From the NCBI GenBank assembly GCA_022825005.1, contig JAJDYU010000009.1:20227-84226 (forward strand): a stretch of DNA of 64,000 nt. Direction: 5' to 3'. Position numbers and translations under genes: made by a program. Below the pieces are notes generated by a model that was not told the origin of the DNA, did no database searches, and saw only the letters and a program-made list of their open reading frames with translations. The DNA is from Acidimicrobiia bacterium. Lineage in GTDB: Bacteria > Actinomycetota > Acidimicrobiia > Acidimicrobiales > Bin134. Below, piece by piece: positions 8,233-51,626 of this stretch; within the stretch, counting starts at the first letter, position 1; the number at the start of each line of letters is the position of its first letter.

Positions 8233-8340
8233 GGAAAATGCGCTGTATAGGGCTAGGGGTTCACCAGATACCTACCGACCTGGGATAAACTTCGGCACCG
8301 CGTATTTATTGGCGCGCCAATTCTGAATTTGGAGGGCAGC

Positions 8341-11300
8341 ATGTCCAACGGCACCAGCAAACCCAGGCGGGCAATGCAGTTGGGCGGAGTATTTGTTGCG
8401 GTCTTCGGGCTCGTGGCCAGCATCACCGCGTTCGCGTCGGCCCAGTCGGGCACCACGCCGGGCGGCAGCGTTGAGATCACCGATGAGTTCTGCATCAACA
8501 GGAGTCTGGGCGGGCCCATCACCTATGCCCACGACAGTTCTAATCCGAAGGACGGTATTGCCGACGTCTGCTCGCTGCCCCGCACCAAACGGGCTGCCGC
8601 CGCCCGCCAGCAGGCCATGGAGCGCATGGCCAGTGAGCTGGCACTGCTGTTCGGCCATTTGTTCGCTCAAGAATGCCTCACGGTTGCGGAGTCGTTCGAT
8701 GAGCCCGCGGCGGAGAGGGACGACGAGTGTGCCGCTCCTCGACTGGCCGAAGCGCGGGGAGCCAACATCCCTCCCGTACCCGCCTCCACGCAGCCGGAGA
8801 TCAGGCTCGACGACCGGTCTTACTCCGGACCGGTAATCACCAGCCCCTCTTTCTGCATCAACAAGAGCTTCGGCGGTCCCATCACCTATCCCCATGACGT
8901 GAACGGCGACGACATATACGACATCTGCTCGCTGCCCCGCACCCGCCGGGCCGCCGTGGCCCGCCAGAACGCGCTGGAGCGCATGGCCGTGGACCTGAAG
9001 CCCCGCTTCGACGTGGTGTTTGCCGAAGAGTGCCTGCGTGTTCCCGAAACCCTGGGCGAGCCCCGAGCCGAGGCCGAAGACGAGTGCGCCGTACACCGCG
9101 CCGGCGGCACCCCGCTCCCCAACCCCGATGACCCAACGTCACCAGATCCGGGCACAGATCCCGGCACAGGGACACCAGACGACGGCTCGCAACTGCCCTA
9201 CGTCCCGGCCCCAGAGCGGCCCTCCGCCACTGCGGCGCCCACTTACCACGCCCGTGCGGCCCAGAATGTGGCCCTCGATCCTGGCAATCAGCAGATCGCG
9301 GTCGACTGGGATGCACCAAGAGAAGACGCTGGCACTGTGTTCAAGTACATCGTGCAATGGCGGGCGAGTGGCCAGAACTGGTCGACAACTAATCAGGCCG
9401 AAACTGGAATTGCAACCAATGACACTGAACACATCATTACTGGCCTGACAAACTTCACCACCTACCAGATTCGGATTCTGGCCCAGCGCGGTACGAACGA
9501 CCGCTACACCCCCACGCTCTCGGCCACGCCGGGATGGTCGGCGCCACCGACATGGCCGGCCCGACCGCTGACCAACCCCGATTACGGACGAGTCATTGCG
9601 GATTGGGAGGATCCCCCTGGAACCGCCGCACTTACCATTAACCACTACATAGTCCAGTGGGACACCAATCCCCGCTTCGCTGACAACAACAACCCGTTCC
9701 CGCGGGATTGCGTGCGTGATACGACTTGCAATGAAATCCAGACCAGTGGGAATGGCACCACTTACACCATCAATGGGCTTACCAACGGCACCTACTACGT
9801 AAGGGTTCAGGGCGTTACCAGCAACGGTCCCGGCGTTTGGTCGACCACCCAGCGAATCACCCTGGCCAGCACCCGGCTCGACCCCGGACAGCCCACCGGG
9901 GTGATGCTCGTGACAGCGGGGACGAATTTCAACCAACTCACCGTGACATGGACTGCCCCGGCGACAACGTCGGCTGATCCGGCGCCAACCGACTACTTGG
10001 TGCAATGGCGCAACCTCACAACCCGGGAAGCCTGGTCGTCGACCGACCGACAGCAAAAGATCGAAGGGACATACACGACCCAAGGCCAGCAGGTGACCAT
10101 CACCACTGCTCCATTGGCCACATACACCATCAATTCCCTCGTCCCTCGTCACGAATACGAAGTCCGAGTCCAGGCCATCAACGTCGACACGCCCGGCCTG
10201 TGGTCTCAGGCGGTCAGACACGTCGTGGCCAAGGCTCAGCCTCCCACCGCCATCACTGTGGACCCGGGCGATGGCCAACTCACAGTTAGCTGGACCGCGC
10301 CAACTGGCGTTCCTACCGTGACCAGTTACTTCCTGCAATGGGCCACCAGTTGCAGCAACTCGGCGTTCTCCACCACCCGCCAGCGCACTGTCCAATCAGC
10401 CACGACAGACACGATCCCCAACCTCACCAACAACCAGCGGTATTACATCAGGATTCAGTCGATCAACAGCCGGGGCTCAAGCGACTGGTCGTCGTGCGCC
10501 ATCGGCGAGCCGGGCACTTTGGACGCACCCACCATCACCGGGATAGTTGATTCCGATACCAATCCCAAGGCGCTCACCGTAACGTGGACCTACGTCCGAG
10601 CCACTGGTAGTGACGATGCAAGCAAGCCTCACCTAACCGGATTCAAGATCCGGTCTCGTCGGGCTGGGTCCAACTGGAGTTCGCCGATACCCGTAGCCTT
10701 GACAGCTAAGACCGTCTCCACCTGCAACCACCAAACTTTGGACGAAACCTGCACCTACACCTACACCTACAGCAACTTGCTGACTGGCGTTTCACACGAC
10801 TTCCAAGTGCTGGCCCGAAACTCGTGGGGTGACGGGGCATGGTCGACGCTTACCTCTGGCACAACCGACGACATTCCGGGTGAGCGGTTCATTCCAACAA
10901 TCTCCAGCGTCGATGAGGACGCAAACAACATCCGATCGCTTGTTGTGAATTGGAGCGCTCCCAGTGTTGGAACAACGGACATAGCTGGGTACCGAGTGCA
11001 GTACCGACGCGCAGGCACCGCGAACTGGTCAACCAGCGCAAACCCGGCAGCCGACGCTACCTCCCACACCATCACCGGACTGAGCACCGGGGTCAGCTAT
11101 GAAGTTCGGGTGGTTGCCCGCACCACCTTCGGCGACGGGCCAGGTTCTACGGCCAGCACCGCCACCCCAGGCCTGGGCTTCATTCCGACGATTGGTTCCA
11201 TTGGGCCGGGGACCAACGGCTTGCAGGTCAGCTGGACAGACGTCACTAGCTACACAGGAAACAACAACACGATCACCTACACCGTGCAATACCGCACCTG

Positions 11301-11541
11301 TGCTACTGCGGTGTCGAATTGCGGGGGCTGGACGAATGCAACGACTACCGCCACCGGCACACCGCATACCATCCCAGTAGAGAGACTGCGGCACAACACG
11401 TATTACGAGGCTCGGGTACGGGCCCACGGCACTACGAGTGGCGGTCACGGCCTCTATTCGGATGAGTCTTCGAGGTACCTCGTTCTGATCTCCGATCCAA
11501 ACAACACGCCGAATGACAGGACCGACGACACGGTGGGCTAG
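8341..11541 (+). CDS. secreted multidomain protein: signal peptide, 2x unknown 4-Cys module, Pro-rich linker, 7x fibronectin type III
   Basis: GGAGGG lies 4 nt before ATG 8341. Signal peptide ...VASITAFASA/QS. Duplicated module FCIN[RK]S[LF]GGPITY-x-HD...D[VI]CSLPRT[KR]RAA...ERMA...ECL...DDEC (aa ~45-131 and ~165-250). Seven FN3-like units with W-x-AP...Y-x-[VI]-[QR]-[WY]R...Y-x-[IV]R[VI]. Confidence 0.75.
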   Translation: MSNGTSKPRRAMQLGGVFVAVFGLVASITAFASAQSGTTPGGSVEITDEFCINRSLGGPITYAHDSSNPKDGIADVCSLPRTKRAAAARQQAMERMASELALLFGHLFAQECLTVAESFDEPAAERDDECAAPRLAEARGANIPPVPASTQPEIRLDDRSYSGPVITSPSFCINKSFGGPITYPHDVNGDDIYDICSLPRTRRAAVARQNALERMAVDLKPRFDVVFAEECLRVPETLGEPRAEAEDECAVHRAGGTPLPNPDDPTSPDPGTDPGTGTPDDGSQLPYVPAPERPSATAAPTYHARAAQNVALDPGNQQIAVDWDAPREDAGTVFKYIVQWRASGQNWSTTNQAETGIATNDTEHIITGLTNFTTYQIRILAQRGTNDRYTPTLSATPGWSAPPTWPARPLTNPDYGRVIADWEDPPGTAALTINHYIVQWDTNPRFADNNNPFPRDCVRDTTCNEIQTSGNGTTYTINGLTNGTYYVRVQGVTSNGPGVWSTTQRITLASTRLDPGQPTGVMLVTAGTNFNQLTVTWTAPATTSADPAPTDYLVQWRNLTTREAWSSTDRQQKIEGTYTTQGQQVTITTAPLATYTINSLVPRHEYEVRVQAINVDTPGLWSQAVRHVVAKAQPPTAITVDPGDGQLTVSWTAPTGVPTVTSYFLQWATSCSNSAFSTTRQRTVQSATTDTIPNLTNNQRYYIRIQSINSRGSSDWSSCAIGEPGTLDAPTITGIVDSDTNPKALTVTWTYVRATGSDDASKPHLTGFKIRSRRAGSNWSSPIPVALTAKTVSTCNHQTLDETCTYTYTYSNLLTGVSHDFQVLARNSWGDGAWSTLTSGTTDDIPGERFIPTISSVDEDANNIRSLVVNWSAPSVGTTDIAGYRVQYRRAGTANWSTSANPAADATSHTITGLSTGVSYEVRVVARTTFGDGPGSTASTATPGLGFIPTIGSIGPGTNGLQVSWTDVTSYTGNNNTITYTVQYRTCATAVSNCGGWTNATTTATGTPHTIPVERLRHNTYYEARVRAHGTTSGGHGLYSDESSRYLVLISDPNNTPNDRTDDTVG

Positions 11542-45423: not shown

Positions 45424-45954
45424 TCAAGCAGTCTGGGCGACGGACTCGGCTGCTGGATCTAGGTAGGGCAGCCAGTCGGAAGGCACATGGCCCACCGCCG
45501 AGGCCACCCAGGCCGAGCGGGGCGGCTCGGCCGGTGGGCGTATCAGCCGCATCTGCGTCTCCGAGAGCAGCCGATCCCGCTTGGCCATGTTGCACCGTCG
45601 ACAGGCGGCCACCACGTTCTCCCAGGAGTGGGTTCCTCCCCGGCTGCGGGGCCGGACGTGGTCGATGGAGTCGGCGTGGCGCCCGCAGTACTGGCAGCGG
45701 TAGCCGTCGCGGGCGAACACTCCCCGGCGGCTGAGCCCGCCGGTGCGGAAGAACGGCACCTTGACGTAGTACCGCAGTCGAACCACCGACGGCAATGGCA
45801 GGTCGAGTCGCTCAGAGCGGATCCGCTCGCCCGACTCCAGCACCACCTCGGCCTTCTCGGCCATCACCAACACGAGAGCGCGCCGGGGCGACACCACACT
45901 CAGCGGCTCGAAAGATGCGTTGAGCACCAGCGCCCGGCTCATGGGGGAAACCAT
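45424..45954 (-). CDS. HNH endonuclease (conserved actinobacterial type)
   Basis: RALVLNASFEPL N-terminus and HNH core CQYCGRHADSIDHVRPRSRGGTHSWENVVAACRRCN. Start ATG 45954 or 45942. Confidence 0.8.
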   Translation of the reverse strand: MVSPMSRALVLNASFEPLSVVSPRRALVLVMAEKAEVVLESGERIRSERLDLPLPSVVRLRYYVKVPFFRTGGLSRRGVFARDGYRCQYCGRHADSIDHVRPRSRGGTHSWENVVAACRRCNMAKRDRLLSETQMRLIRPPAEPPRSAWVASAVGHVPSDWLPYLDPAAESVAQTA

Positions 45955-46038
45955 AGTGAACCTGCCGAACCGCTTTGCGCGGATTACCCAGAACACACCT
46001 CCGCGCTGAATGCCGGAATGCGGCCGTTTAGCTCGGTT

Positions 46039-46293: not shown

Positions 46294-46869
46294 ATGGGAA
46301 CACTTGCCGTAACCGGCGATCAAGACGCCGACCAACTCCTCCTCGATGATCCGTTCGCTCTTCTGCTGGCCATGATGCTCGACCAGCAAGTCTCTATGGA
46401 GTGGGCGTTCAAGTCGCCCCTCCGCTTGAAGGAGCGGATCCCCGATGATTTTTCCGCCGCGGGATTGGCCGAGATGGATCCCGAGAGGGCCGAGGCTGCG
46501 TTCAAGGAGAAGCCCGCCCTGCACCGGTTCCCCGGGTCGATGGCCCGCCGGGCCCAAGACCTGGCCCGCCACATCGTGGACCACTACGACGGCGACGCCG
46601 CCAAGCTGTGGGGCGAGGCACCTACCGGCCAAGACCTGCTCAAGCGGCTCAAGGCCCTACCCGGCTACGGCGACGAGAAGGCCAAGATCTTCCTAGCTGT
46701 GTTGGCCAAGCGCTTCAACGTCACCCCCGAAGGCTGGGAAGCCGCCGCCGCCCCCTTCTCCGACCCCACCCCCCGCACCGTCGCCGACATAGACAGCCCC
46801 GAAGCCCTAGCCGAAGTAAGAGCCTGGAAAAAAGCCCAAAAGGCCAAAGGCAAAACCAAGCAAGACTGA
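46294..46869 (+). CDS. HhH-GPD family base-excision-repair-like protein
   Basis: DPFALLLAMMLDQQV...LKALPGYGDEKAKIFLAVL is typical of the short HhH-GPD family. Lys-rich C-terminus. Confidence 0.7.
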   Translation: MGTLAVTGDQDADQLLLDDPFALLLAMMLDQQVSMEWAFKSPLRLKERIPDDFSAAGLAEMDPERAEAAFKEKPALHRFPGSMARRAQDLARHIVDHYDGDAAKLWGEAPTGQDLLKRLKALPGYGDEKAKIFLAVLAKRFNVTPEGWEAAAAPFSDPTPRTVADIDSPEALAEVRAWKKAQKAKGKTKQD

Positions 46870-46903
46870 CCGTAACCGTCTGATTCAGTACGGTTACCCC
46901 CGC

Positions 46904-48367
46904 ATGACCAACCCAGCCGACATCCCTCCCCCACTCCCCTGGGAGCTGCGCGCCAAGGCCGTTGGAAGCATGCCAGGGGGCAACGCCAGCTATTTGGAAA
47001 CCCTGCGCGAAGTCTGTGGATTTGTCTCCAGACAGCGTCCAACCTCCCAAGACCTAGTTGGCTGGCTACAAAACCGCTTTGGCTTAAAAGAAAACAGCGC
47101 CTCTTGGAGAGGGCGGTTCTTACAAAACACTGGCATTCTCGAATTTGATTCTGGCCTGCTTCAACTCAGTAAGTTCGCAGACCGCTGGTACGAATCCGAG
47201 GATGATGGCATTGTCATCGCGCTGCTTCACAGCAGACTCCAATTCATCGGGGAGATGCTTGCGGAGTTGAGCGCTAGGCCGCTACGGACCGAGGAGCTGC
47301 GCCTAGCAGCCGACAGATACGGGCTGAATTGGGAGAGGGGCGACCAAATTGCGAGGCGGCGGAGATGGCTTCAGTCGGCCAAGCTCACCGAACCCGCTGG
47401 AAGCGGCCGTATTGCAATCACTGACGCGGGACGCGATCTGCTGTCAAAGCTAGATCTCTACGTACCCTCCGGTATCACTGCGCGCCCTCAACCTTCCTCC
47501 GCTACTAATTCACAGAAGACTGGTCCCGAGGTTGATAACCCGGATTCACCCCTCACTGATGCACCCAAGCCTGACCTACACACGCCAACAATCGATCTCT
47601 CAGACGCCAAATCTCTCGCAAACAGAATCAGAGACGCATCCACCGACAGCAAGAACCCAGACCGATTGGAAATCGCCGTCCGGGACGCTTTCGATTTTCT
47701 GGGTTTCGACGCCGAAAAGCTCGGTGGAAGCGGCAAGACCGATGTGCTGGTCAAGGCTCCTCTGGGTAAAGAGGACTCCTACACAGTGACCATCGACGCC
47801 AAAACAGTCGGCTCCGGTTCTCTGGGTGATCACCAGGTGGACTGGGTGACTCTGGAAGATCATCGCAAACAGCACAACGCCGACTATTCGATGCTTGTAG
47901 GGCCAAACCCCTCCGGCCAACGCCTGATGAGCCGGGCAATCAACAAGTCGGTCGCGGTGCTCTCAACTGAACAACTTGCTGAGCTGTGCATCCAGCACGC
48001 CGATGCGCCACTAGGTCTACAGGACTACCGAGCCCTCTTCGAGTCCGGCGGCGCGGTCGACACGGTCTCGATAGGCAAAGCTGCCCAAGACCTGACCCGG
48101 CTTCGAGATCTCGCAGTTGAGATTTGTTCGAAGTTGGCTGAGAGGACCGGTGCTTTCGGGCCGCTCACTGCTCCACAACTGATGGTGATGCTCGGTCAGC
48201 CCGACAAGTCCAGTTCCGAGCAGGAAATCCAGCAAGTGCTCGACACCTTGGCCAGCCCGCTCATAGGCGCCGTCCAAGGCAAAGCTTCAGAGGGGTACGT
48301 CCTCGCCACGGCCCCACGGGTCATTCAACAACGTCTCCAACTGCTTGGAGATCAACTCGCACGGTAG
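46904..48367 (+). CDS. FokI-like (PD-(D/E)xK) nuclease-domain protein with N-terminal winged-helix-like region; no adjacent methyltransferase
   Basis: aa 265-305 GFDAEKLGGSGKTDVLVKAPLGKEDSYTVTIDAKTVGSG parallels the remembered FokI cleavage domain GYRGKHLGGSRKPDGAIYT...YGVIVDTKAYSGG. Putative catalytic residues are D280, D298, K300. AVLSTEQLAEL parallels FokI AVLSVEELL. The N-terminal ~185 aa contain wHTH-like GSGRIAITDAGRDLL. Confidence 0.55.
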   Translation: MTNPADIPPPLPWELRAKAVGSMPGGNASYLETLREVCGFVSRQRPTSQDLVGWLQNRFGLKENSASWRGRFLQNTGILEFDSGLLQLSKFADRWYESEDDGIVIALLHSRLQFIGEMLAELSARPLRTEELRLAADRYGLNWERGDQIARRRRWLQSAKLTEPAGSGRIAITDAGRDLLSKLDLYVPSGITARPQPSSATNSQKTGPEVDNPDSPLTDAPKPDLHTPTIDLSDAKSLANRIRDASTDSKNPDRLEIAVRDAFDFLGFDAEKLGGSGKTDVLVKAPLGKEDSYTVTIDAKTVGSGSLGDHQVDWVTLEDHRKQHNADYSMLVGPNPSGQRLMSRAINKSVAVLSTEQLAELCIQHADAPLGLQDYRALFESGGAVDTVSIGKAAQDLTRLRDLAVEICSKLAERTGAFGPLTAPQLMVMLGQPDKSSSEQEIQQVLDTLASPLIGAVQGKASEGYVLATAPRVIQQRLQLLGDQLAR

Positions 48368-48427
48368 GCCCACTCGCGGCAGCAACATCACTCCAGACCT
48401 CCAACGCGATCCTCCAAACGCGCAGAG

Positions 48428-48497
48428 GCCCCGGGACTTTGATCCACAGCCAATCCGGGGCTTACTTCCGGTGAGGGCCTCCTGGCTAAGTCACCGG
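48428..48497. terminator. two hairpins between convergent island genes
   Basis: GCCCCGG (48428-34) / CCGGGGC (48455-61) and CCGGTGA (48469-75) / TCACCGG (48491-97). No clear U-tracts. Confidence 0.3.
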
Positions 48498-48521
48498 CCA
48501 CTTGCAATATAAACCACGAGC

Positions 48522-48782
48522 TCAGCTAAGTGGAGCGATCTTCTGCGGAGACGTTCCGCTCTTCAGGGTGTGCCATGCGGACATGAGCTCTTCTTCATGC
48601 AGCTCGCTCCACTCCGCAACCATGTTCCGGCATCGCCTGGGTAGTGATCCTTCAATAATGGAACGCGTAGCAATGTCGACCGTTGCGCTGTGCTCGCCAT
48701 ATTGAGCGTGGAAATGCGGAGGGTTGTGGTCGTTGGCAAACATCCGAATGACAATGCCGTAGAAGCGACTGAGTTCTGGCAT
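48522..48782 (-). CDS. DUF4160 domain protein
   Basis: MPELSRFYGIVIRMFANDHNPPHFHAQYGEHSATVDI is the DUF4160 signature. Start ATG 48782 (M70 of the track ORF). Confidence 0.8.
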   Translation of the reverse strand: MPELSRFYGIVIRMFANDHNPPHFHAQYGEHSATVDIATRSIIEGSLPRRCRNMVAEWSELHEEELMSAWHTLKSGTSPQKIAPLS

Positions 48783-48793
48783 CGGCAGCCCGG

Positions 48794-49087
48794 CTAGTCC
48801 AAAAGTGGTTGCCAGGGCTTCGGGTATAGGTCCTTGAGCGACTTGCCAGTGAGGTCCATATAGAGCCCGTGTTGGCTGAGTTCCACGTCGTCGCCGTCGC
48901 CCCAGGCCACTGCCCCGTAATCGCGAATGCTCACATTCCGGAAGAAGGCTGGATCTGACCACGCAGAGAACACGCCCTTCGAGGCCCACCGAGAGAGGTC
49001 CACTTCACCTTCGACGCCATCGGCAAAGCGCAGCCATAACCGGTAGAGCCCTCTCGGCTCAACCTCCACAACGCGCACTGCATCCAT
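48794..49087 (-). CDS. DUF2442 domain protein
   Basis: VVEVEPRGLYRLWLRFADGVEGEVDLS...GVFSAWSDPAFFRNVSI...AVAWGDGDDVELSQHGLY matches the DUF2442 pattern. 11-nt gap to DUF4160. Confidence 0.75.
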   Translation of the reverse strand: MDAVRVVEVEPRGLYRLWLRFADGVEGEVDLSRWASKGVFSAWSDPAFFRNVSIRDYGAVAWGDGDDVELSQHGLYMDLTGKSLKDLYPKPWQPLLD

Positions 49088-49163
49088 CCTGACATCCTAC
49101 CCACGATGGGTGTTCTTCCACGTTCTGCTTGGTCCGTCAGGAAGGGGCTGGAAGCCCAGCAGC

Positions 49164-50105
49164 TCAGCGTCTCAAGGCAGGTTCGGGGGGTAGTTGCCAG
49201 GGGGGCCTTAGGTATTGGCGGCCGGTGTCGGGGTGTTTTTCGACGTTCCAGTTTCGGTGGTGCACTTTTTGGTGGCAGTCGTGGCATACCAGTACGAGGT
49301 TGTCGGGTTGGGTGGGGCCTCCGTGTTGCCATTCAACGATGTGGTGCGAAACGCACCATTCGGGTTCTTTGCGGCAGCCTATGCAGCCGCCGTCTCGGGC
49401 TTCGAGGGCGGCTCGCAGGGCGAAGTTGGGGCGGCGGCTGGTTGAGCCCATCCAAATGGGCTCAGTGCTTGCTCTTTTGAACAAGCCGCACAAGATGTCT
49501 GCGTCACAAGCCAGGCGGTGGAACTCGCTTGGCGGAAGCGGGGTGCCATCCGCTAGGCGGGGGCGGCCCAGCTTGTCGTCGATCAGGTCGTAGTCGGCCA
49601 TCAACAACAGCGTGGTGCCCTGGGGCTGCTCGCTGCCGTCTGCGGAAATCGTGCGGGTGATGAGCCGCTCCAACGCATCAGCCCGGCGGTGCCGATCAGC
49701 GGTGTGCTCGCGGCGGTTGTCGGTGCGCCAGTCGTCGTCGGTCGCCTTGTTCAGCGACTTGCGGATCCGCGCCGCCGCAACCGGGTCGAACAAGGCAAAC
49801 AGCTGCCACATCCCGTCGTCTCGTAAATAGAAGCTGGCCGTGCGGTTCTTGCGCTGGCGCTCGAACCGCTTGGCCCCGTCATCGCCGGCCAACTCGTTCT
49901 GGTGGTCGCGCACCGTCTTGCGCAACTGCTCCGGCGTCTGCGTCTCAGCCACCACCTTGGCCAAAAACCCCTCCAACCGATTACGACAAGACCCAATCAA
50001 CCGAAGCCGAGCATCCAACCCGGCATCGTCCAACCTGGCCACATCCACAGCATCAACATGCACGCCGCCCCCGGCATTCCCGCAGGTCACAGCCCCAAAA
50101 TCCAT
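49164..50105 (-). CDS. HNH endonuclease with DUF222 N-terminal region (REP13E12-type)
   Basis: C-terminus CIGCRKEPEWCVSHHIVEWQHGGPTQPDNLVLVCHDCHQKVH (HNH). N-terminal LDDAGLDARLRLIGSCRNRLEGFLAKVVAE is typical of DUF222. Start uncertain and the product is shorter than usual. Confidence 0.75.
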   Translation of the reverse strand: MDFGAVTCGNAGGGVHVDAVDVARLDDAGLDARLRLIGSCRNRLEGFLAKVVAETQTPEQLRKTVRDHQNELAGDDGAKRFERQRKNRTASFYLRDDGMWQLFALFDPVAAARIRKSLNKATDDDWRTDNRREHTADRHRRADALERLITRTISADGSEQPQGTTLLLMADYDLIDDKLGRPRLADGTPLPPSEFHRLACDADILCGLFKRASTEPIWMGSTSRRPNFALRAALEARDGGCIGCRKEPEWCVSHHIVEWQHGGPTQPDNLVLVCHDCHQKVHHRNWNVEKHPDTGRQYLRPPWQLPPEPALRR

Positions 50106-50223
50106 ACAACAATGATATTTACGGCAGTGACACATTCTCAGGGGGCGATACACCATGCAGGTCTTACGTCCACAAGATGCCAACCCCTGAAATGAGTGCT
50201 ACGACTTTTCAGGTGACACGTAA

Positions 50224-50547
50224 TCAGTAGCGAATGTCCAGTGCGTAGCGGAGGGCTTGGTCGAGTCGTGCTCGGACATCAACACTGAGTCGGCCGACAG
50301 GCTCGGAGTCGAGCAAAGCCAGCGAGATGGTGAGGACGTTGTCGCAATTGATCACGCTGGGCGACAACAGTCCTTCCTCTACACCGACTTCGACTTCGGA
50401 GTGAATGCCCCGAATGGTCCGAGTAATTGGAGCACAAGTGACTGAAGTAAGCACTGCGAGCGCGGCGTTGCGGGTGAGGACGCAGACAGGACGCCGTCCG
50501 TGCGGCGGGCCGAGGTCTGCCCAGAAGACGTCGCCGCGGCTTACCAC
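50224..50547 (-). CDS. MazF/PemK-family type II toxin (mRNA interferase)
   Basis: RGDVFWADLGPPHGRRPVCVLTRNAA...VTCAPITRTIRG is a PemK-like fold signature. 7-nt overlap with the upstream antitoxin ORF. Confidence 0.8.
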   Translation of the reverse strand: MVSRGDVFWADLGPPHGRRPVCVLTRNAALAVLTSVTCAPITRTIRGIHSEVEVGVEEGLLSPSVINCDNVLTISLALLDSEPVGRLSVDVRARLDQALRYALDIRY

Positions 50548-50846
50548 TCAGGTGTGTTGACAGCAGCAATCCGGGAGGAGGTGGCCACAAGACCCTGGTC
50601 TTGTGGAATTCGGCGGTAGGCCTCTTGCAACTCCTGATCGGAGGCCTCGCAATCCGTAGCAGCAATGGCAGTGGTGACGATACGACGCACCAGCACCGAG
50701 CGGCTCGTCCCTTGTTCAGCAGCCAGCTTGTCCAGTTGCTCCACAAGGTCATCGTCGAATTGGAACACCACGTCCTGAAGTGCCACGACCTCAGCATACT
50801 CCCCTGCCCGAGAAAACCCTGGTGTGCATTTGACGCCCGTCAGCAT
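50541..50846 (-). CDS. ribbon-helix-helix (CopG-like) antitoxin
   Basis: VVFQFDDDLVEQLDKLAAEQGTSRSVLVRRIV is RHH-like. The true start may be GTG 50786 rather than ATG 50846. Confidence 0.6.
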   Translation of the reverse strand: MLTGVKCTPGFSRAGEYAEVVALQDVVFQFDDDLVEQLDKLAAEQGTSRSVLVRRIVTTAIAATDCEASDQELQEAYRRIPQDQGLVATSSRIAAVNTPEW

Positions 50847-50867
50847 CCTCAGGATGGATTCCCCTCT

Positions 50868-51626
50868 TCAGGGGATGAGGGTTATTTGGGAGTCGAGCCA
50901 GCCTAGGAGGATGGATATGCAGCGGGGGTCGGAGTGGAGGCGGTGGCCGGCGCCGCTGATGATGCGCAGGCCAGCGTCGCCGTGGGCGTCGGCGATGGCT
51001 CGGGCGTCGAGGGGTGACACCTCTCGGTCATCGGAGCCGTGCAACACCAGCATGGGACGGGGGGCGATCTGACCAGCGCACCGGTCGACTCGAATCGACT
51101 GGGCGGCCTTGGCCCAGGAGTCGACGGAATCGGGATAGCCGGGGGTGGAGATCACGCCCAGCGAGCGGGCGTACTCCACAACCCCGGAGGCATCCAGGCC
51201 CCAGTGGGCGAAGTCCACCGGCGCACCCATGGTGGCCACTCCCCTAACCCGGGGGTCGTCTTGAGCAACATGGGCCACCAACGCCCCGCCGATGCCGAAC
51301 CCCGCCAGCCAGACCCCTTCCACATGATCGAGCCCGTCGAGGTGGTCTACCGCGCTGCGGACGTCGTCGGTCCATCCCTCCAGGGAGAAGTCGCCCTCGC
51401 TGTCGCCGCAGCCCTGGTAGTTGAGCACCAGCGCAGCCCACTCCATGTTCTGGGCGATTCGATCGGCCAAGGGGTAGAGCCGCTCAGCGGCCCTCGAACC
51501 ACCGTTGGCGGCCGAAGGGAAGGCCGAGCACAGCACCACGCCAGGGAGCGCCCGCATTCGGCGGCTGTCGGGCAGCGCCAGATATCCGGCAAGCTTGAGC
51601 CCGCCGGTTGTCTGCCACTGGGTCAC
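50868..51626 (-). CDS. alpha/beta-hydrolase-fold protein with Gly at the nucleophile position
   Basis: Fold pattern ...VLNYQGCGDSEG...VWLAGFGIGGALV...VLHGSDDREV...GAGHRL. The elbow reads G-F-G-I-G-G where G-x-S-x-G is expected (codon GGC at 51294-51296). Confidence 0.7.
   Translation of the reverse strand: MTQWQTTGGLKLAGYLALPDSRRMRALPGVVLCSAFPSAANGGSRAAERLYPLADRIAQNMEWAALVLNYQGCGDSEGDFSLEGWTDDVRSAVDHLDGLDHVEGVWLAGFGIGGALVAHVAQDDPRVRGVATMGAPVDFAHWGLDASGVVEYARSLGVISTPGYPDSVDSWAKAAQSIRVDRCAGQIAPRPMLVLHGSDDREVSPLDARAIADAHGDAGLRIISGAGHRLHSDPRCISILLGWLDSQITLIP

Follow-up and report, generated by a model that had tools for sequence, protein, structure and literature searches.

The genes of type II restriction endonucleases are almost always linked to those of their methyltransferases. 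Modification-dependent restriction endonucleases include fusions of a different make, such as VcaM4I (EVE-HNH), HhiV4I and HtuIII (PUA-winged helix-HNH), DpnI and FcyTI (PD-(D/E)xK-winged helix), and MspJI and AspBHI (SRA-Mrr_cat). The subject here is a gene at positions 46904..48367 (+) of a 64,000-nucleotide stretch, termed the window, of an Acidimicrobiia contig from a sponge metagenome. Its product of 487 amino acids (aa) is very likely a defence endonuclease that stands alone and has a nuclease of Mrr/FokI type. More specifically, it is probably a single-polypeptide restriction endonuclease of the Mrr lineage, independent of nucleoside triphosphates (NTPs), most likely of type IV (modification-dependent) and in no need of a methyltransferase.

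Among the closest described systems, Mrr restricts DNA carrying N6-methyladenine (m6A or 6mA) and 5-methylcytosine (m5C) (PMC3874153). Fusions of an EVE domain to a nuclease are established or predicted modification-dependent enzymes (PMC6765204, PMC7897488, PMC7641849), and winged-helix (wH) domains in other nuclease fusions are proven 6mA sensors (PMC11037411). Fusions of both kinds are rarely found near methyltransferases (PMC6765204, PMC11037411). Brief mentions of EVE-PD-(D/E)xK fusions, and of an NTPase-linked kind of wH-Mrr_cat fusion, can be found in earlier surveys (PMC11037411, PMC7641849).

Domain anatomy and nuclease family

The open reading frame (ORF) opens with ATG. An AlphaFold2 model of the product, built on 55 homologues, has a mean predicted local distance difference test score (pLDDT) of 88, with 393 residues at 90 or above. 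The gene is divided as follows.

46904..48367, forward strand: the whole gene, a stand-alone endonuclease of 487 aa with the order wH1-wH2-linker-PD-(D/E)xK-helix/wH3
46904..47197, forward strand (aa 1-98): conserved N-terminal motif PW.QR.K.V..MPGGY..Y and winged helix 1 (wH1), from predicted secondary structure and conserved columns
47198..47458, forward strand (aa 99-185): winged helix 2 (wH2), Mrr_N-like, from hhalign and the Pfam matches of relatives
47459..47596, forward strand (aa 186-231): disordered tether rich in Pro, Ser and Thr, from pLDDT and composition
47597..48055, forward strand (aa 232-384): PD-(D/E)xK nuclease domain of Mrr_cat/FokI-cleavage type, from Foldseek, hhalign and conservation
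48056..48364, forward strand (aa 385-487): C-terminal domain made of a long helix (aa 388-418) and, after it, a third winged helix (wH3), from a separate model

The nuclease domain holds the motifs that a preliminary description of this locus, made from the letters alone, had matched to the cleavage domain of FokI. LGGSGKTD (aa 273-280), TIDAK (aa 296-300) and AVLSTEQLAEL (aa 351-361) lie where it placed them, and the D280-to-D298 spacing is 18 residues, as it had counted, where FokI has 17. E256, D280, D298 and K300 are predicted to be catalytic. The first two are invariant among 76 family sequences and the other two are at least 90 % conserved, which supports an active enzyme.

In a Foldseek search of the Protein Data Bank (PDB) with the whole model, FokI (2fok, 1fok) was the top match (E 2.7e-9, 468 aligned columns), and the other matches included HindIII (E 1.5e-5), the type IIS nickase N.BspD6I (E 2.8e-5), the recognition domain of BpuJI (E 1.7e-3), and the modification-dependent enzymes AspBHI (E 2.9e-3) and MspJI (E 3.7e-2). 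For sequence comparison, the FokI cleavage domain was represented by a reference identical to PDB 1FOK residues 381-576. BLASTP of the query against this domain gave E 0.009 in a single comparison. Two family profiles, A1 (55 sequences) and A2 (76 sequences), were aligned to it by hhalign with E 9.8e-5 (probability 58 %, 138 columns) and E 6.1e-6 (probability 85 %, 72 columns), and both alignments pair D280/D298/K300 with FokI D450/D467/K469. At the level of sequence the FokI resemblance is genuine but faint. The FokI-resembling PD-(D/E)xK cleavage domain that had been proposed is thus recovered by Foldseek and hhalign alike.

The resemblance to Mrr is stronger. The same profiles aligned to Escherichia coli K-12 Mrr with probabilities of 90.6 % (E 1.3e-6) and 94.5 % (E 7.6e-8). 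The alignment is collinear, from wH2 (aa 113-180, paired with Mrr 8-90) across the linker into the nuclease, of which it covers the first half; it shares the recognition helix R-x-G-W...L..AGL, and pairs TIDAK with VQAK of Mrr; the FokI profile match, unlike this longer one, is confined to the cleavage domain. When family members were scanned singly with Pfam, Mrr_cat was found in 31 of 55 (A1) and 37 of 76 (A2), with several matches above the gathering score, and Mrr_N in 10 of the 76. The Mrr_N and HTH_45 matches of these relatives sit at the winged helix directly before the nuclease. RE_HindIII was matched by one to three members and FokI_cleav_dom (PF09254) by none at E <= 0.01, with weak precomputed matches only. 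By sequence and domain order, the closest characterised relative is the type IV enzyme Mrr, and FokI is a structural cousin in the same PD-(D/E)xK neighbourhood. The label FokI-type given in the preliminary description therefore yields to the better and longer Mrr match. Searches of the query against PDB sequences gave no match, the family hidden Markov model (HMM) retrieved only noise from them (MID51, AP-2), and the query alone had no Mrr_cat match at E <= 1. Because such searches were uninformative, relatedness to FokI and Mrr rests on hhalign and Foldseek.

The N-terminal part was expected to be a tandem of winged helices followed by a disordered linker rich in Pro and Ser, and the model and the composition bear this out. 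In wH1, helices span aa 30-75 and hairpin strands aa 79-88; in wH2, helices span aa 101-158 and hairpin strands aa 162-172, with the conserved motif RRxWLQSA (aa 151-159) on the recognition helix. The linker has pLDDT below 50 over aa 190-230, and its 46 residues include 9 Pro, 5 Ser and 6 Thr. Its identity is 7-17 % to syntenic relatives, except for the closest (57 %), and 0-27 % across the remaining family. Among the folded domains, wH1 is the most divergent, with 43-66 % identity in syntenic relatives as against 57-70 % for wH2, 60-80 % for the C-terminal domain and 79-86 % for the nuclease. Such fast divergence of the head is what a diversifying specificity head would show.

An additional C-terminal domain had also been foreseen. 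It exists, but it is not merely helical as described: modelled on their own, the last 108 residues (mf7180697f79b, pLDDT 88) form a helix-helix-hairpin-helix unit after the long helix. In the architecture census given below, nearly every full-length relative with the nuclease domain has this domain too. Foldseek with the isolated domain returned only generic wH regulators (IscR, SmtB, Fur, Z-alpha; best E 0.08) and gave no functional clue.

Family, insertion site and gene neighbourhood

The family is patchy in distribution. An index of 5.8 billion proteins contains 147 homologues, and an exhaustive search by profile of 1.84 billion representatives found 532 clusters at E <= 1e-30 and 1,178 at E <= 1e-10, counted at 50 % identity. 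A scan of one genome per species located 103 loci among 185,579 species, mostly in Acidimicrobiia. The loci are scattered over Actinomycetota, Pseudomonadota, Myxococcota and Bacillota, with hosts outside Acidimicrobiia that include Micromonospora, Streptomyces, Saccharopolyspora, Gammaproteobacteria, Myxococcota, Lachnospiraceae and other Clostridia, and Alteribacter. Plasmid copies occur in Staphylococcus and Priestia, where RefSeq labels them "restriction endonuclease", and in Bacillus and Gordonia, where they are "hypothetical protein"; one plasmid copy adjoins an ABC-three-component system, AbiH and an integrase. A phage genome collection held no homologue, and a viral structure library held only isolated FokI/Mrr-like nuclease domains. 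The homologues in L011, L018, L051 and L057 are pseudogenes with in-frame stops, and those in L036 and L044 are truncated at the C-terminus (L numbers denote individual loci, contigs or genomes of the comparison).

Domain arrangements were counted in 262 family proteins with HMMs cut from the family alignment. The form of the query (wH pair, nuclease, C-terminal domain) accounts for 114, a form with the wH pair duplicated for 81, and a form with an EVE domain before the wH pair for 41, or 46 (~17 %) when truncated forms are included. Fragments and other forms make up the remaining 26, or 21 if the five truncated EVE forms are moved to the EVE group. The EVE matches of these relatives to Pfam are solid (best E 5e-13); the query belongs to the EVE-less core architecture. 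Haloarchaea have an HNH_2 family of 328 aa whose N-terminal half is a homologue of the wH1-wH2 head (hhalign probability 98.5 %, E 1.9e-15, 171 columns). Judged by this homology, the reading head is portable and has been combined with two nuclease folds that are not related. The haloarchaeal family (PF13391) comprises L094:4004-4990 on the Natrinema plasmid NZ_CP100758.1 and 495 homologues, is highly conserved, and is annotated "HNH endonuclease / putative restriction endonuclease". The haloarchaeal head gave no link to a tested enzyme, since this 328-aa HNH_2 family is a different one.

The closest named relatives of the source genome are Candidatus Poriferisocius. In the window, the gene order downstream of the dcw cluster is MraZ, an LplA-like gene, a 176-aa HNH gene, an HhH-GPD gene and the nuclease. 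The immediate neighbourhood contains the following.

46294-46869, forward strand: HhH-GPD/EndoIII-like protein of 191 aa, directly upstream of the nuclease
46870..50867, no strand: low-GC accessory island of 3,998 bp between the HhH-GPD and abhydrolase genes, defined by an empty site
48522-48989, reverse strand: DUF4160 (Pfam)
48794-49087, reverse strand: DUF2442 (Pfam)
49164-50183, reverse strand: DUF222-HNH, a "13E12-type" selfish endonuclease (Pfam)
50279-50797, reverse strand: ORF of 172 aa, an island gene

The empty site is found in L093, a 3.04-Mb Ca. Poriferisocius genome with identical synteny, where the HhH-GPD gene is followed after 26 bp by the abhydrolase gene. In a blastn comparison of the window with L093, homology ends at 46869 and restarts at 50868, which marks 46870-50867 as an accessory island with the nuclease as its first gene. 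The GC content at third codon positions (GC3) is 0.63 in the nuclease and 0.55-0.74 in the rest of the island, and 0.81-0.89 in the flanking core genes and 0.79 in the HhH-GPD gene. The nuclease occupies the same spot in all 12 syntenic loci and is the least conserved gene there, with 74 % identity to L002 and 62 % to L003; the flanking genes have 71-98 % and the HhH-GPD protein 89-93 %. The contents of the island vary, since L002 carries additional ORFs of 227 and 416 aa and L003 lacks DUF222-HNH. The precise absence in L093 together with this variable content identifies the site as an insertion hotspot, where the gene is accessory cargo of an Acidimicrobiia genome associated with sponges. 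An empty site in a close relative and a count of 103 loci in 185,579 species show that it is no universally conserved core gene; a core gene would have counted against the proposal of a defence enzyme.

The downstream DUF4160 and DUF2442 genes overlap (48522-49087, -) and form a putative toxin-antitoxin (TA)-like pair. The preliminary description had taken all the neighbours for TA or selfish-type genes, which holds downstream, for DUF4160/DUF2442 and DUF222-HNH, but fails upstream, where the HhH-GPD gene is a housekeeping gene outside the island.

Several further features of the region were observed. A search for boundary repeats or att sites of the island gave nothing convincing. A 15-nt direct repeat, TTCC(G/C)CTCTTCAGGG, is present at 48554-48568, within the 3' end of the DUF4160 gene, and at 50859-50873, across the right island border; it may be due to chance or be what a nested insertion of the block DUF4160/DUF2442/DUF222-HNH left behind. 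Between the HhH-GPD stop codon and the nuclease ATG, a perfect 8-bp inverted repeat, GTAACCGT ... ACGGTTAC, with a 10-nt loop (46872-46898), takes up the 34-bp gap; it could be a terminator-like hairpin or an operator. A scan for sigma-70 promoters and terminators found nothing that exceeded shuffled expectation. The HNH endonuclease gene at 45424-45996 (-), of 176-190 aa, lies between the LplA-like and HhH-GPD genes and is 94-95 % identical in relatives; its presence at the empty site makes it a fixed resident outside the island. The HhH-GPD protein belongs to a very large family in Acidimicrobiia that some sources mislabel "HesB", and in a HMMER alignment to EndoIII (1orn) it has Glu where EndoIII has the lysine of the HhH motif; a Lys follows at the next residue (LPGYGDEKAK). 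Another low-GC stretch (GC ~0.61) holds an ORF of 1,070 aa at 8329-11541 (+), whose counterpart in the related contig L088 is a protein of fibronectin-type-III repeats, eukaryote-like and typical of sponge symbionts.

No conserved partner gene accompanies the nuclease. Pfam-annotated genes cover ~2.7-58.4 kb of the window, and the sole methyltransferases among them are RsmH, which acts on rRNA, and a UbiE-type small-molecule enzyme. A motif scan of all stop-to-stop ORFs of at least 150 aa across the 64 kb found no DNA methyltransferase signature, in agreement with the earlier remark that the window encodes no protective methylase. Six Pfam-annotated homologue loci likewise have no DNA methyltransferase within 8-10 kb and instead show TA genes, DUF222-HNH, transposases or plain metabolic genes, and the annotated plasmid copies also stand alone. 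When flanking ORFs (+-6 kb) of 86 loci from 37 lineages were clustered, the only conserved neighbours were ABC ATPases of a generic kind, in 11 lineages, and the mobile DUF222-HNH, in 6. No conserved methyltransferase was among the neighbours, and the adjacent cognate enzyme in related genomes that would have pointed to an ordinary restriction-modification system was thus not encountered.

Where motif scans flagged methyltransferases near homologues, a Pfam check assigned them to other complete systems. L021 and L031 have a Pfam-confirmed type I HsdM, L045 has the same neighbour cluster, and an Eco57I-like enzyme lies nearby in L084. In Aldehydirespiratoraceae (L038:3318-7588, and L041, L047 and L069), a complete cluster of NaeI-family restriction-modification genes adjoins the homologue on its upstream side; with a NaeI-like restriction endonuclease, two C5 methyltransferases and Vsr, it is a defence island. 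Its C5 methyltransferase was considered as a cognate partner of the homologue and rejected, as it pairs with the NaeI-family endonuclease and Vsr.

Proposed mechanism and alternative explanations

The two N-terminal winged helices, wH1 and the Mrr_N-like wH2, would together form the DNA-reading head. The target of this head may be a modified base missing from host DNA, alone or as part of a short sequence. A disordered tether of ~45 residues joins the head to the PD-(D/E)xK nuclease (E256, D280, D298-x-K300), which probably has to pair with a second copy in order to make a double-strand break near, and not in, the bound site. This paired cleavage is suggested by analogy with FokI, which works in this way, and with Mrr and MspJI, for which the same has been proposed (PMC3874153). 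The C-terminal helix and wH3 may serve in dimerisation, in auto-inhibition or gating, or as a second DNA contact. Host DNA would be spared because the enzyme needs a modification that the host does not have. The preliminary description had offered three possibilities, namely a modification-dependent, type IV-like nuclease, a regulated or auto-inhibited effector, and a new single-gene immunity system. The first is the one favoured by the evidence, namely the fold with its conserved catalytic residues, the relationship to Mrr, the lack of a linked cognate methyltransferase, the EVE readers of relatives and the transfer of the head to an HNH nuclease. The patchy distribution, the plasmid copies, the four pseudogenes, the precise empty site, the low GC3 and a fast-evolving head in the least conserved gene of its surroundings are in keeping with a defence gene. 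The last possibility does not hold: the protein is not a new immunity system, and RefSeq already names most plasmid homologues restriction endonucleases.

A number of points weigh against modification dependence. It is inferred from architecture and context, and likeness of the nuclease domain does not dictate it: LlaGI has Mrr motifs, yet methylated DNA is not its target (PMC3874153). The query itself has no EVE domain, either by Pfam or in the AlphaFold2 model, and a profile search against the PDB found its wH head to be unlike DpnI or other solved methyl-sensing winged helices. On its own the query falls below all Pfam thresholds, with RE_HindIII (E 0.016) as its sole match, and it matches no PADLOC-DB v2 family at E <= 1 and no NCBIfam model. 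In Aldehydirespiratoraceae, active-looking C5 methyltransferases adjoin the gene, so that, if the enzyme is modification-dependent there, their m5C pattern cannot be its trigger. In the 80 unannotated loci, methyltransferases were sought by motif scans and clustering, which divergent enzymes could escape, and the searches covered the window and the flanks of the loci, so that an unlinked methyltransferase may lie elsewhere in the genome.

The other explanation given most weight, though unlikely, is an effector nuclease of an abortive-infection or toxin-like kind, held inactive by the C-terminal helix/wH or by oligomerisation until phage, DNA damage or a DNA structure supplies the cue. It would suit a gene that stands alone without a linked methyltransferase and whose conserved C-terminal domain matches only generic wH regulators. 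The TA-like genes of the island (DUF4160/DUF2442), the PIN/RHH, RES and ParE genes near relatives, and the plasmid copy beside AbiH and the ABC-three-component system are compatible with it, as is the activation of E. coli Mrr by high pressure independently of methylation (PMC3874153). However, the EVE modified-base reader in ~17 % of relatives points to DNA chemistry and not to a protein cue, winged helices that bind DNA and are homologues of Mrr_N make up the head, and the 86 loci have no conserved sensor, NTPase or antitoxin partner. The EVE fusions, which typify modification-dependent and not modification-blocked enzymes, also tell against an orthodox type IIS-like enzyme of FokI architecture whose methyltransferase is encoded elsewhere in the genome or whose host lacks the recognition site. 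FokI, N.BspD6I and BpuJI, with their wH-type recognition domains, are indeed the best structural matches, the motifs of the cleavage domain align with those of FokI, and the head diverges fast, as specificity domains do. Yet a conserved methyltransferase neighbour is missing from the 37 lineages and a DNA methyltransferase from the 64-kb window, and the 4-kb island, which is present or absent as a unit, contains none, so that its arrival would be lethal if the enzyme were orthodox; such an enzyme is improbable.

A role outside defence has a very low probability. A selfish, homing-like nuclease that promotes its own insertion would fit the HNH-DUF222 selfish gene in the same island and the shared insertion point in the 12 loci of this lineage, and a housekeeping nuclease of repair or recombination is the other form of this proposal. 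The gene is not core, being missing from the empty site of a congener and from all but 103 of the species scanned; neither boundary repeats nor an intein or intron context were found, other lineages carry it at unrelated loci, often among defence genes, and homing leaves the EVE fusions unexplained. Least credible is a two-gene system in which the HhH-GPD protein (46294-46869) would sense unusual bases and pass the DNA to the nuclease. The genes lie 34 bp apart on one strand and adjoin each other in 12 of 12 syntenic loci, and END nucleases offer a precedent, as they sense hypermodified DNA through an inactivated EndoIII domain (PMC12191111). The HhH-GPD gene is nevertheless widespread in Acidimicrobiia (3,626 homologues against 147 for the nuclease), occurs without the nuclease in unrelated contexts, stays at the empty site in direct contact with the abhydrolase gene, and is absent from the other 36 lineages. 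It is also core-like in GC3 (0.79 against 0.63) and in identity (89-93 % against 62-74 %). As a widespread, nuclease-independent gene kept at the empty site, it was rejected as a functional partner, and the adjacency simply marks the insertion point.

A bolder version of the modification-dependent enzyme is doubtful but would have wider consequences. In it, the winged helices themselves would read a modification outside the range of known sensors, for example phage hypermodification or phosphorothioate, and wH3 would gate a FokI-like dimeric cleavage, making this a new class of single-chain restriction enzyme. If this were true, the portable two-wH head, which a haloarchaeal HNH family also has and which can be combined with EVE or doubled, would be a new programmable reader of modified DNA with biotechnological use.

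Comparison with known systems

Should the type IV assignment be right, the family adds an uncharacterised branch of ~500-1,200 clusters (50 % identity) to the Mrr-type type IV enzymes. Its hosts are mainly Acidimicrobiia, Streptomyces, Micromonospora, Lachnospiraceae and other Clostridia, with some Bacillota plasmids, and its design is modular, the two-wH head being duplicated, capped by EVE or moved onto an HNH nuclease. Type IV-like enzymes are tools for mapping DNA modifications and are barriers to transforming actinobacteria with methylated DNA. Sponge symbionts are known for heavy defence loads, and the finding marks a 4-kb insertion hotspot beside the dcw cluster in such symbionts.

With EcoKMrr the protein shares the order of winged-helix domain, linker and PD-(D/E)xK nuclease, the R-x-G-W...L..AGL motif, and a stand-alone, NTP-independent organisation without a methyltransferase. 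The Mrr_cat PD-(D/E)xK domain is recognised at the level of the family profile, where TIDAK pairs with VQAK, and wH2 takes the place of the Mrr_N winged helix before the nuclease. The query differs in length (487 aa against 304 aa) and in its catalytic motif (D-x-K, whereas Mrr has Q-x-K), and it falls below the Pfam thresholds for Mrr_N and Mrr_cat. It also adds domains without a counterpart in Mrr: an N-terminal wH1 with the conserved PW.QR.K...MPGGY motif, and a conserved C-terminal helix with wH3.

FokI has the same D...D-x-K triad at near-equal spacing and likewise tethers a wH-type recognition region to its cleavage domain. Both the fold and the counterparts of D450/D467/K469 are present in the query (Foldseek E 3e-9; hhalign E 1e-4 to 6e-6). 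FokI, however, has three recognition subdomains and nothing after its cleavage domain, its sequence signal falls short of that of Mrr and does not extend beyond the nuclease core, and it cuts unmodified GGATG sites and has a cognate methyltransferase, for which the window and the 86 loci provide no adjacent equivalent.

The modification-dependent fusions resemble the query in joining one or more modular readers to a nuclease, in standing alone, and in seldom having a cognate methyltransferase close by (PMC6765204, PMC11037411). Some relatives of the query have the order EVE-wH-wH-nuclease, the wH pair is carried on HNH in haloarchaea, and AspBHI and MspJI are among the Foldseek matches. The query itself has no reader of the PUA superfamily (EVE, SRA, YTH or ASCH). 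The characterised fusions differ from it in domain order and wH family, show no detected similarity in the case of DpnI, and have no C-terminal helix/wH3 module. Good descriptions already exist of the domain logic and of stand-alone genes without a methylase, and no concept is changed. What appears to be undescribed in the libraries searched is the wH1-wH2(Mrr_N-like)-D-x-K nuclease-helix/wH3 architecture, with its obligatory C-terminal domain and a two-wH head common to the haloarchaeal HNH family.

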